Source: an uncultured Chloroflexia bacterium (lineage in GTDB: Bacteria > Chloroflexota > Limnocylindria > Limnocylindrales > CSP1-4). From it: DNA of 64,000 nucleotides. Location of the stretch: NCBI GenBank assembly GCA_963749705.1, contig CAVVNQ010000003.1, forward strand, positions 64,001-128,000, read 5' to 3'. The position numbers and the translations under genes were made by a program. Below are positions 8,605 through 56,522 of the stretch, piece by piece; the stretch's first letter is position 1; every line of letters begins with the position of its first letter. The notes below the pieces were generated by a model. The model had not been told where the DNA came from. It did no database searches and was given only the letters and a program-made list of their open reading frames with translations.

Positions 8605-8680
8605 GCGCCTGTAGCTCAGTGGATAGAGCGTCGGCCTCCGGAGCCGAAGGTCGCAGGTTCGAATCCTGTCGGGCGCGCCA
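8605..8680 (+). tRNA. tRNA-Arg(CCG)
   Basis: Acceptor stem GCGCCTG/CGGGCGC, anticodon arm TCGGC-CTCCGGA-GCCGA, GTTCGAATC T-loop, encoded CCA; -10-like TAGACT at 8589-8594. Confidence 0.97.
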
Positions 8681-54277: not shown

Positions 54278-54643
54278 ATGCCCCAGCCAACCCCGGAGCC
54301 TGTACCCAGCCAGGGCGCCGGTCACGACACGTTCCGCCACAGCTACAGCAAGGACAAGGCCCAGCTGGTCCGGCGCCTCAGCCGGCTCGAGGGTCAGGTT
54401 CGCGGGATCGCGAGGATGATCGAGCGCGAGGAGTACTGCGTCGACATCCTCCAGCAGACCGCCGCGCTGCGAGCGGCGGTCGATGCCGTCTCGATCCTCA
54501 TCCTCGAGGACCACGTCCAGGGCTGCGTCCGAACGGCCGCTGAGCACGGCGACGCGGACCGGTACGTCGATGAGGTCATCGACGTCGTCCGGCGCACGCT
54601 GGGGCGACCGGTGCGAGCGGGCGGTCGCACCGTCCAGCCCTGA
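54278..54643 (+). CDS. csoR: CsoR/RcnR family metal-sensing repressor
   Basis: RLSRLEGQVRGI..M, YCVDILQQ, HVQGC (Cys-His-Cys ligands). Confidence 0.88.
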   Translation: MPQPTPEPVPSQGAGHDTFRHSYSKDKAQLVRRLSRLEGQVRGIARMIEREEYCVDILQQTAALRAAVDAVSILILEDHVQGCVRTAAEHGDADRYVDEVIDVVRRTLGRPVRAGGRTVQP

Positions 54644-54721
54644 CCGGCGGGGTTCGTTCGGGCCGAAACAGCGGGCCAACCCGCCTGCCGCCGCACGACC
54701 GACGGTGGACGAGCGACCGGG

Positions 54722-54796
54722 TTATCCACAACTCGCGCGCGGCCCCGGCGTTTCGTTGATAAGGGGGTTGACGGTGCCCGGGTGCCGTCCTAACGT
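54722..54796 (+). promoter_or_regulatory. DnaA box(es) and sigma70 promoter
   Basis: TTATCCACA at 54722-54730; inverted degenerate box CGTTGATAA at 54754-54762; TTGACG-N17-TAACGT at 54768-54796. Confidence 0.7.
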
Positions 54797-54802
54797 CCGG
54801 AC

Positions 54803-55025
54803 TCCGCACGCAGCGTGCGCGCACCGGGGAGCGCGATCCATGAGGGGCCACGGGGAGACTCGGGCCTGAGCCGAGGGGGTTGCGCCAGACCGGGCACAGC
54901 GCGCGTGCCGCGGCGATCGAACGACGCCGGGAGCGGCTTCCGGATGGCCTGGTGCACAAGCACAGGAGAGTGCCCTGGTCCATCCGAGAGAACCGCTCCC
55001 GACGCGCGTTCAGGACCTTCCCCCG
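54803..55025 (+). ncRNA. Candidate structured RNA (6S/Ms1-like sRNA or rsmG leader)
   Basis: Follows the promoter; GNRA hairpin 54846-54866, hairpin 54893-54909, long stem 54919-55011, possible 5'/3' closing stem. Confidence 0.5.
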
Positions 55026-55748
55026 CTGCCGTCCGGGTACCACGACGTCCTCGACGATGGGCTCCGCGCACTCGGCGTCGTGCTCGACGACCCGGCACGC
55101 GACGCGATCGACAGCCATGTCCGCCTGCTGCTCGCGTGGACCACCGCGATGAACCTGACGGCGATCCGCGAGCCGGCCGAGGTCGCCAGGCTCCACGTGC
55201 TCGACAGCCTGGCGGCCGTACCCCACCTGCGCCGGTTCGGTGTTCGACGGCTCCTCGATCTTGGCAGCGGCGGCGGGTACCCGGGGCTGCCGGTCGCGGT
55301 CACCCTCGACGCGGACCGTGCACTGCTCGTCGATGCGGTCGGCAAGAAGGTCCGGTTCCTGCGGACCGTGATCGAGGCCACCCGGCTGGGCACGCGGTTC
55401 GCCGCGGAAGCGGCGCGCGCCGAGACACTGGCCCACGACCCGCGTGACCGCGAGGCGTGGCCGCTGGTCACGGCCCGTGCCGTCTCGTCGCTCGCGGAGC
55501 TGGTCGAGCTGGCCCTGCCCCTGGTCGCGCCGGGGGGCCGGCTGGTGGCATGGAAGCGGCTGCCGCTGGACGACGAGCTGCGGGCCGCGGCGCCCGCCCT
55601 TGCTGCGCTGCGCGCCGGTCCGGTCGAGGTGGTCGACGCGGGCGTCCCGGGCCTCGCGACACACCGGCTCGTGATCGTGCCGCGGTCCGGACCGATCGAC
55701 GCCCGCTTTCCCCGGGACCCCGCCGTACGGCGGCGTGCGTCGCTGTGA
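54975..55748 (+). CDS. rsmG: 16S rRNA m7G527 methyltransferase (start uncertain: CTG 54975 or GTG 55080)
   Basis: MNLTAI, HVLDSL, DLGSGGGYPGLP, KKVRFL, RAE, TARAV; AGGAGAG RBS before the in-frame CTG. Confidence 0.92.
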   Translation: MVHPREPLPTRVQDLPPLPSGYHDVLDDGLRALGVVLDDPARDAIDSHVRLLLAWTTAMNLTAIREPAEVARLHVLDSLAAVPHLRRFGVRRLLDLGSGGGYPGLPVAVTLDADRALLVDAVGKKVRFLRTVIEATRLGTRFAAEAARAETLAHDPRDREAWPLVTARAVSSLAELVELALPLVAPGGRLVAWKRLPLDDELRAAAPALAALRAGPVEVVDAGVPGLATHRLVIVPRSGPIDARFPRDPAVRRRASL

Positions 55749-55799: not shown

Positions 55800-56522
55800 A
55801 TGCGTGTCGCCGTGCTCTCGGACATCCACGCGAATGTCACGGCTCTCGATGCCGTCCTCGCCGCCGTCCCATCCGTCGATGAGCTGTGGCACCTCGGCGA
55901 CGTGGTCGGCTACGGGCCCCACCCCGACGCGGTCGTCACCCGGATGCGCGAGGCCGGTGCGGTCGGGGTGCGGGGCAACCACGACGCGGCCGCGGTCGGC
56001 GGGCTCGAGATCGAGGCATTCAACGTCGACGCGCGGACCGCGATGGAGTGGACGCGCTCGGTGATCGGGGAGGAGACGCGGGCCTGGTTGCGGGCGCTGC
56101 CGGAGCGCCTCGAGCGGGCGGATTTCACGATGGTCCACGGCAGCCCGCGCGATCCGACCTGGGAGTACGTGACATCGACCCCGGTGGCGCGGGCGGGCAT
56201 GACCTCGATGGCGACGCAGTTCGGGCTGCACGGCCACACGCATATCCCGATCGCGTATGTCGAGCAGGACGGCCGGCTCGTGACCATGAGCCCCGGCAAT
56301 GGCTCGACGCTCACCTTCGATGGTCGTCGCGTGCTGCTCAACCCGGGCAGCGTCGGCCAGCCGCGCGACGGCATCCCGGCGTCCTCGTGGCTGCTGCTGG
56401 ACACCGACGCCGGGACCGCGACGTGGCGGCGGACCGCGTACGACGTCGCCACGGTGCAGGCCGCGATGGTGGCCGTCGACCTTCCGGACCGCCTGGTCAC
56501 CCGGCTGGCACATGGCCTGTAG
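55800..56522 (+). CDS. Calcineurin-like metallophosphoesterase
   Basis: SDIHAN, GDVVGYG, GNHD, HGSP, GHTH, NPGSVGQPRDG. Confidence 0.93.
   Translation: MRVAVLSDIHANVTALDAVLAAVPSVDELWHLGDVVGYGPHPDAVVTRMREAGAVGVRGNHDAAAVGGLEIEAFNVDARTAMEWTRSVIGEETRAWLRALPERLERADFTMVHGSPRDPTWEYVTSTPVARAGMTSMATQFGLHGHTHIPIAYVEQDGRLVTMSPGNGSTLTFDGRRVLLNPGSVGQPRDGIPASSWLLLDTDAGTATWRRTAYDVATVQAAMVAVDLPDRLVTRLAHGL

Follow-up and report, generated by a model that had tools for sequence, protein, structure and literature searches.

The window analyzed here is a 64,000-nt stretch (positions 64,001 to 128,000 of contig CAVVNQ010000003.1) from the genome of an uncultured Chloroflexia bacterium, a 3.6-Mb assembly (GCA_963749705.1) that is 88% complete and has 71% G+C. 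In front of an operon consisting of rsmG and a metallophosphoesterase gene, and reaching over the rsmG start, we found a conserved leader of ~213 nt (54803-55015, + strand) that is a real structured RNA and very probably a functional one. As far as Rfam 15 and our literature searches show, it is undescribed. Comparative analysis established the fold of the leader, its conservation, its position and its independence of rsmG. We consider it probable that the leader acts in cis, in a riboswitch-like manner, to control translation of the rsmG-metallophosphoesterase operon. The parts of the RNA are as follows.

54803-55015 (+): whole structured leader RNA, ~213 nt, defined by covariance model R1, a 60-pair consensus and covariation
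54824-54895 (+): conserved core with base helix, purine-rich internal loop, P2 stem and GNRA hairpin
54832-54840 with 54876-54884 (+): P2 stem, strongly covarying
54846-54866 (+): GNRA hairpin GGCC-A-CGGG-GAGA-CTCG-GGCC
54896-54918 (+): variable linker, poorly conserved, with a small P3 in the consensus
54919-55011 (+): long hairpin P4 with an invariant base, a covarying variable middle and an apical loop
54928-54936 (CGGGAGCGG) and 54993-55001 (CCGCTCCCG) (+): invariant base of P4
54964-54968 (+): Shine-Dalgarno sequence AGGAG, in the 12-nt apical loop of P4

The leader DNA was 70-98% identical in 22 of 24 genomes of the same genus, which is high for an intergenic region, and the other two gave weak local matches. 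Within its own genome the 381-nt leader stretch had one full match, the remainder being chance matches of 15-45 nt, and this single copy rules out a repeat or mobile element. Three covariance models were used: R1 from 23 sequences of the genus, R2 rebuilt from 46 sequences, and R3 restricted to 71 positions of the core. R1 matched the window at 54798-55035 with 217.7 bits and gave exactly one match per genome, on the sense strand and full-length in most, in 88 of the 108 other genomes of the family. R2 matched 44 of 44 family genomes, including genera missed by R1. The core model R3, which matched the core in the window at 60.3 bits, was run on a draw of 151 genomes from the phylum, where it found the core in 3/3 genomes of the family and 10/10 genomes of a second family of the same class, with one weak partial match (E 0.008) among the other 137. 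R3 found the core in genomes G115, G135 and G128, and did not find it in G111 (genus g17) or G202.

Apart from this one weak partial match, the element was not seen beyond these two families. A sister family with 1.1-Mb genomes gave no match with any model (R1 0/42, R2 0/6, R3 0/1). The full-length model R2 under strict filters matched 0/50 genomes of the second family, where the element was found on individual loci and by the core model. In a third family (f3) R2 matched none of 49 genomes and gave a single match, at E = 10, in 13 loci; when 12 rsmG loci of this family were read by eye, neither leader nor DnaA boxes were seen, the region upstream of rsmG being short and unrelated. In loci L185-L197 of this family the rsmG start lies within a few bases of a conserved CATACGATA, with a divergent gene close by. 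This arrangement looks leaderless or near-leaderless, the opposite of the long leader described here.

The fold was supported by compensatory changes. In the 46-sequence alignment 92.0% of cells form a pair, against 28.5-39.6% when the partners were slid, and 34 of the 60 pairs show double-sided changes, which occur in 266 cells. For covariation the score was 0.325, compared with 0.140 after shuffling, and none of 500 shuffles reached it. This alignment was fitted to the model and leans towards the structure, and because of this the count was repeated on a structure-blind MAFFT alignment of the core, to which the first family contributed 32 sequences and the second 9. In these 41 sequences 87.8% of cells pair (20.7-45.6% slid), both partners vary in 12 of 20 pairs, and the score of 0.357 (0.165 shuffled) was reached in 0/500 shuffles. 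In P4, which is absent from the second family, 14 of 24 pairs in helices 9-13 show changes on both sides. A preliminary description of this DNA had proposed a structured RNA here and had named covariation among homologues as a check; fold z-scores, covariation and the single copy per genome now confirm the candidate as real.

Prediction of the structure gave similar indications. The P4 stem (54919-55011), already described as a long irregular stem, folds at -56.5 kcal/mol (z = -5.28), and the stretch 54803-55020 folds with z = -4.19; in both cases 0 of 200 shuffles were as good. The opposite strand of the leader folds less strongly (z = -2.62), and many G-U pairs are compatible with the + strand only. 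Antisense matches of R1 are confined to P4 and score 28-44 bits, compared with 173-232 bits for 16 sense matches in the same genus and 39-87 bits for sense matches in other genera. Judged by the G-U pairs and the strand-specific scores, the + strand is the RNA strand. The consensus has 60 pairs and three branch points and consists of the core domain and the separate long hairpin, whose largest loop is its 12-nt end loop. In the core the asymmetric purine-rich loop reads GGGGAGC ... CCAGACC in the window and GGGUAAC ... GGAAGACC in most genera, and invariant GGUAAC, ACCG and GAAGACCG stand between variable stems. The linker keeps only a 3-bp CGC/GCG helix.

All sequence features listed in the preliminary description are present in the DNA, and they fared differently when compared with relatives. 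Compensatory changes preserve the GNRA hairpin and its surrounding helix. A hairpin GGCAC/GTGCC (54893-54909) falls in the least conserved stretch and is not kept, and a suggested end pairing of 54824-54843 with 55010-55025 appears in no consensus; the full-length RNAalifold structure instead closes with 54815-54821 and 55003-55009. A local hairpin CCGGGAGCGGCTCCCGG in the 5' arm of P4 was considered as a switch and dropped, as by eye it is present only in the genus of the window.

The leader is new with respect to Rfam, as had been anticipated. All 4227 families of Rfam 15, presumably with Ms1 among them, were scanned. No match to the leader reached the gathering score in the window, none that was real appeared at E <= 10 in 54500-55300 (mir-629, Actino-ugpB and mir-2518, at E 1.7-8.7, were discarded as noise), and eight related loci gave no match at E <= 1. 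None of the known riboswitch or leader classes represented by Rfam 15 models was matched. In a literature search of limited extent, neither a structured RNA in front of rsmG/gidB nor any riboswitch of Limnocylindria was found described. The sole Rfam match of the window is a tRNA gene at 8605-8677 (+), with 72 bits.

The leader extends over the probable translation start of rsmG, the first gene of the operon. The genes around it are as follows.

ends at 54643, upstream of the leader: csoR-type repressor gene (PF02583 match)
54975-55748 (+): rsmG coding sequence, probable CTG start at 54975-54977 (PF02527, TIGR00138)
55800-56522 (+): metallophosphoesterase gene, second of the operon (PF12850)

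The rsmG product scores 109.9 bits against PF02527 (cut-off 27) and 103.7 bits against TIGR00138 (cut-off 99.5), and by the curated cut-offs of both models the gene product is RsmG/GidB. At the 3' end of the csoR-type gene (54609-54632) there is a small inverted repeat, CGGTGCGAGCG/CGGTCGCACCG, with no T-run after it, and a terminator scan covering this repeat called none.

The preliminary description had let the RNA overlap the rsmG start, and the start most likely does lie inside the structure, at 54975 rather than at GTG 55080, the first GTG. Reading in the rsmG frame is open from 54870 (stop at 54867), with no in-frame ATG, GTG or TTG before 55080. Protein-like conservation (PLPTRV.DLPPLP..Y...L..GL) with synonymous changes begins well upstream of 55080, codon-like conservation begins upstream of 55014, and the tblastn matches of relatives begin at residue 1 of the translation from 54975. 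The shared start position lies 18 nt before the invariant CCGCTCCCG and, in relatives, 4-7 nt after AGGAG(G); the 16S rRNA of the organism ends in ...GGATCACCTCCTTT. The start position is CTG in 21 of 23 members of the genus, four members having an extra ATG, TTG or GTG four codons upstream of it, and in other genera, represented by 30 sequences, 11 have GTG there, 8 have CTG and 1 has ATA. Taken together, the CTG at 54975 is most likely the true start of rsmG, as judged from these sequence comparisons. The annotation would be corrected accordingly to a conserved CTG that gene callers limited to ATG, GTG and TTG would miss. According to the available part of one study, initiation from CUG and AUA in E. 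coli reaches 1-2% of that from AUG (10.1101/063800).

Other starts were considered and rejected. GTG 54970 is invariant, lies out of the rsmG frame and is 1 nt from the Shine-Dalgarno sequence; a -1 frameshift from it would need a slippery site, and by eye none is conserved. GTG 55080 is not kept in relatives, and a small upstream open reading frame of nine codons from ATG 54840 lacks its ATG in relatives. In the predicted fold of the window leader, the 12-nt end loop of P4 carries the Shine-Dalgarno sequence and the P4 stem contains the start codon.

In the second family the same core is followed by another arrangement. Here the DnaA boxes and promoter described below are the same, the leader is shorter (~120 nt) and P4 is absent. 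The order is an invariant 5' UCCUGCUUCC, a closing helix, the core, the Shine-Dalgarno sequence G[AG][AG]GCA, CAUUU and a TTG, ATG or GTG start. In the consensus fold the Shine-Dalgarno sequence is paired by a 5' UGCUUC in 11/11 sequences, with pairs that alternate between U-A and U-G and a double change in one sequence. One core may thereby be combined with two different ways of burying the ribosome-binding region. In both families covarying helices and conserved unpaired bases form a structured domain in the 5' leader, and in the predicted folds the putative expression platform overlaps the ribosome-binding site.

The relation between the leader and rsmG was resolved by genomes that lack the gene. 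No GidB domain was found anywhere in three genomes of the second family, G176 and G184 (genus g34) and G174 (genus g32), or in G128 (genus g21) of the window's own family. These four genomes are 89-97% complete; boxes and promoter are still present in all of them, and so is the core, which scores 55-67 bits. In them the phosphoesterase gene starts 38 nt (G176), 38 nt (G184), 81 nt (G174) and 11 nt (G128) after the RNA match, and encodes an ortholog with 49-55% identity to that of the window (E 1e-70 to 1e-82). P4 is retained in G128 as well, together with a Shine-Dalgarno sequence and a GTG, and its base, which is otherwise invariant, has a compensatory A-U pair there. On our reading of the sequences of G128 and G174, a short remnant reading frame may run from the regulated start into the start of the phosphoesterase gene in another frame. 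The order leader-rsmG-phosphoesterase on the same strand was found in 24 of 24 family genomes for which both coordinates were available, and also in G170. The proposal of the preliminary description, a new leader controlling rsmG, stands in so far as this is a conserved 5' leader around the translation start; its ties are to the rsmG-metallophosphoesterase operon, and it survives the loss of rsmG. The constant partner of the leader is the phosphoesterase gene.

The phosphoesterase is a Metallophos_2 protein that remains below the cut-offs of the YfcE and ApaH-type models, and the closest solved structure is PDB 3rqz (E 5e-59). The GidB/RsmG domain was also absent from a further genome of the second family, G202, so that five genomes in the 89-97% completeness range (with G176, G184, G174 and G128) lack it, and this suggests repeated loss of the m7G527 methyltransferase in the class. 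In G170 (G170:C2:794412-795039, - strand; 97% complete) rsmG matches as two segments that differ in frame and are separated by a TGA; the leader before it is intact, and the gene itself may be frameshifted or in decay. Loss of RsmG in other bacteria leads to low-level streptomycin resistance. In Pseudomonas aeruginosa, too, low-level streptomycin resistance follows from such loss according to the available part of one report (PMC13438810).

Upstream of the leader there is a promoter with DnaA boxes, whose parts are as follows.

54722-54730 (+): DnaA box 1, TTATCCACA, a perfect box
54754-54762 (-): DnaA box 2, inverted and degenerate, TTATCAACG, with 2 mismatches
54768-54796 (+): promoter, -35 TTGACG (54768-54773), 17-nt spacer, -10 TAACGT (54791-54796)

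The two boxes are 32 nt apart, with box 2 directly adjoining the -35 element. Counting both strands of the 3.6-Mb assembly, the perfect TTATCCACA occurs once, at this locus. At least one DnaA box with at most one mismatch was present in 49 of 49 loci of the family and both boxes in 29; in the other 20 the second box was recognisable by eye with 2 mismatches. In the second family both boxes were within one mismatch in 9/9 loci. The consensus in the family is TTATCCAC[A/G/C] for box 1 and [C/G]GTGGATAA for the inverted box 2. In relatives the layout from 5' to 3' is box 1, box 2, (G)TTGAC directly after it, a spacer of 17-18 nt and TA[ACG]CGT, and in family alignments both hexamer motifs are kept while the spacer sequence varies. 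The TTGACG-N17-TAACGT promoter of the preliminary description is thus present, and its support is the conservation of TTGAC-17/18-TAnnnT across 49 loci. Consensus boxes, a fixed place relative to the promoter and conservation in relatives are what a DnaA-regulated promoter should have. Two loci of genus g3 (L076, L077) carry two tandem inverted boxes, GTGGACAA/GTGGATAA and GGTGGATAA, in place of one, ~50-95 nt before the leader, and in the second family a third site resembling a box overlaps the -35 region at three loci.

An origin of replication was considered for this locus and rejected, as it has two boxes only and the cumulative skew makes no turn there on the contig. The dnaA gene is ~70 kb away, with two relaxed DnaA boxes of its own just past its 3' end (C3:187784 and 187868), and therefore the leader locus is a DnaA-box promoter and not an origin. 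Stable DnaA sites in intergenic regions are reportedly found in Bacillus subtilis.

Taken together, our observations can be arranged in the following way. Transcription would start from the promoter described above, where two inverted DnaA boxes with a spacing of 32 nt flank the -35 element, and because of this placement DnaA probably sets how often the operon is transcribed. The ~70-nt core, with its base helix, purine-rich asymmetric loop, covarying stem and GNRA hairpin, would be the sensor-like part. In the window's family P4 would hold the Shine-Dalgarno sequence in its end loop and a weak CTG or GTG start in its stem, and in the second family the 5' UGCUUC would pair directly with the Shine-Dalgarno sequence, so that in both designs the folded RNA is predicted to bury the ribosome-binding region. 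The most likely mechanism is that a change in the fold of the core would control translation initiation, either as a riboswitch or as a leader that binds a factor. Control of translation through the buried start is, on the predicted folds, more likely than not. That the signal is a small molecule is possible and, to our judgement, somewhat doubtful. More speculatively, the core may be the aptamer of a new riboswitch class whose ligand is a nucleotide-derived signal hydrolysed by the ApaH/YfcE-like phosphoesterase, for example a dinucleoside polyphosphate or another alarmone, so that the state of DnaA and a metabolite jointly set both genes. This tentative proposal would include that the start-holding part has been rebuilt at least once and that in many species it holds a start other than AUG, GUG or UUG (CUG, and once AUA).

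Metatranscriptome assemblies contain parts of the locus. Three runs hold parts of a 1451-nt stretch around the leader, and a further run (X4) has no contig on it. In the soil runs X2 and X3, which possibly are one data set, a 173-nt contig covers 54826-54998 with 1 mismatch and a second contig is the leader of a relative; nothing else of the 1451-nt stretch is covered in these runs, neither csoR nor the rsmG body. From the sediment run X1 come the leader of a relative, pieces of csoR and one piece at 55036-55117, all short and mostly from relatives. Contigs cannot show ends, strand or level, and such libraries can contain DNA; within these limits the coverage hints weakly at a leader that is transcribed and persists longer than the body of the gene.

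These limits are among several points that weigh against a translational control leader as outlined above. In genus g17 the element was not found (R1 0/5, R3 0/1), although this genus keeps rsmG beside the phosphoesterase gene. In the other genera, 10 of the 30 sequences have no ATG, GTG, TTG, CTG or ATA at the shared start position (two of these 10 have an ATG two codons upstream), and at one locus, L069, a canonical in-frame start is missing over a span of more than 50 codons on either side. The fold energy of the second-family leader is usual for its composition (z = -1.21). An E. coli-type sigma-70 consensus scan calls no promoter at the leader locus, because TAACGT matches TATAAT at 3/6 positions only, and the transcription start is placed by inference near 54803.

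A further point of this kind is the closing helix in the window's family, which is not settled, as there are three incompatible candidates. RNAalifold closes the full-length structure as given above, single-sequence folds pair the 5' end of the leader with the linker, and the CCGCAC that is invariant at the 5' end can pair with GUGCG in 90.0% of cells and with GGGAGCGG in 96.6%, with covariation for neither. Mutually exclusive partners of the 5' end would suit a switch, which is a matter of compatibility and not evidence. A further difficulty is that, were GGGAGCGG the partner of the 5' end in the bound state, one family would have an ON switch and the other an OFF switch.

Of the alternatives, a structure without a sensor is unlikely and survives best. 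Here the leader would have a fixed role, either holding operon translation at a very low level or acting at the mRNA 5' end as a stability element or RNase site, and DnaA alone would regulate. The high stability of P4 (-56.5 kcal/mol) would fit this, as would the weakness of CTG and ATA starts, if the near-cognate rate of 1-2% of AUG that the available part of the E. coli study gives (10.1101/063800) applies, and no alternative fold is backed by covariation. A mere hairpin, however, needs no 70-nt core with near-invariant unpaired purines that is kept across two families while the start-holding part is rebuilt, and the core remains at full score after rsmG has been lost.

Repression by a protein that binds the core, either the phosphoesterase or a ribosome-related protein, is improbable. 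Such autoregulation would agree with a leader that encloses the start site and stays with the phosphoesterase gene in all cases seen, and autogenous control by RNA-binding enzymes and proteins (threonyl-tRNA synthetase, ribosomal proteins) is established elsewhere. RsmG itself is excluded as a required partner: four rsmG-less genomes keep the leader, RsmG autoregulation is therefore unlikely, and an RsmG-bound leader failed this test of co-occurrence. Nor does the RNA resemble helix 18 of its own 16S rRNA (the 530 loop); when sequence likeness was compared, which was the only kind of likeness compared, the two had only the 7-nt GCCGCGG in common, in the non-conserved linker, and the longest words common to the leader and the 16S rRNA (9 nt) lie elsewhere than helix 18. 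A likeness to GGAGGGUGC was also considered and does not apply, as the 16S rRNA of this organism reads ACGTAGGTGAC there. Also against a protein, metallophosphoesterases of this type are, to our knowledge, not known to bind RNA.

As its other reading the preliminary description had offered a free 6S/Ms1-type RNA that binds RNA polymerase and is co-transcribed with rsmG, and this we consider very improbable. The likeness lies in the similar size (~200 nt), the long imperfect stem and a possible co-transcription with the downstream gene; in addition, the 6S model RF00013 finds no match in the whole 88%-complete genome, and the X2/X3 contigs cover the leader and not the gene body. The leader, in contrast, matches no Rfam model, is branched and has no unbranched rod with a large central bubble that would mimic an open promoter, carries the Shine-Dalgarno sequence, the start codon and the first codons of rsmG inside it, is found in only two families with P4 missing in one, and has no terminator called. 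A 6S RNA of this lineage, if there is any, escapes RF00013. Equally improbable is an element that acts as DNA, an origin part or a DnaA-titrating site with its inverted repeats, for although the locus has the only perfect DnaA box of the assembly and two conserved boxes, and gid genes adjoin oriC in some bacteria according to the available part of one report (PMC13438810), an AT-rich stretch is missing and there are no more than the two boxes, dnaA is ~70 kb distant and has its own pair of boxes, the cumulative skew has no turn, the G-U pairs and strand-specific scores point to RNA, and the boxes lie outside the transcribed structure.

If the leader is the riboswitch-like translational control element we propose, it would be a well-supported new orphan regulatory RNA, with a compact ~70-nt core that could be studied in vitro despite the uncultured organisms. 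One sensor domain with two modes of hiding a ribosome-binding site would be a natural experiment in the evolution of expression platforms, and a DnaA-controlled promoter stacked on a structured leader would link replication status to ribosome maturation. Should the signal concern the phosphoesterase rather than RsmG, the leader would also give a handle on the substrate of this enzyme.

Among known systems the leader is most readily compared with translational riboswitches. In SAM-II, SAM-III/SMK and preQ1 riboswitches the Shine-Dalgarno sequence is hidden in the closing helix of the aptamer. The leader is similar in its position, its conserved core, its covarying stems and its invariant unpaired bases, and also in how the start region is predicted to be hidden: in the second family the Shine-Dalgarno sequence forms the 3' strand of the closing pairing, and in the window's family a helix buries the start. 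It differs by having no Rfam match, two start-holding designs on one core and a DnaA-box promoter. Autogenous control by substrate mimicry is known from the thrS operator and ribosomal-protein leaders and has been reported as self-control of ksgA; here, too, a gene for an RNA-modifying or RNA-binding enzyme stands behind a structured leader that overlaps its start, and unlike in those systems the leader is kept when the enzyme gene is gone, and no sequence likeness to the 16S target helix was found. The E. coli ksgA-apaG-apaH operon also combines genes for a 16S rRNA methyltransferase and a metallophosphoesterase-type hydrolase, with the differences that the methyltransferase here is RsmG and not RsmA and that the phosphoesterase is below the ApaH/YfcE cut-offs; we know of no structured leader or DnaA boxes in the E. 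coli operon.

Another candidate cis-regulatory RNA stands before mraW, a gene that we take to encode the 16S rRNA methyltransferase RsmH. According to the available part of its description, the mraW motif (RF01746) is a likely cis-regulatory motif of Actinomycetales (PMC2864571). As far as this source goes, both are orphan candidates found by comparative genomics in front of a 16S rRNA methyltransferase gene, and they differ in that the leader has no RF01746 match, another phylum, another fold and outlives the loss of the methyltransferase gene. For the promoter the closest parallel is in P. aeruginosa, where DnaA boxes before the gidAB-parAB promoter regulate the operon, according to the available part of the report (PMC13438810). 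To the extent that it describes that system, the two have in common DnaA boxes just before the promoter of an operon containing gidB (that is, rsmG), whereas the locus described here has no gidA or parAB and no origin, and its two inverted boxes, at a fixed spacing of 32 nt and abutting the -35 element, are followed by a structured leader.

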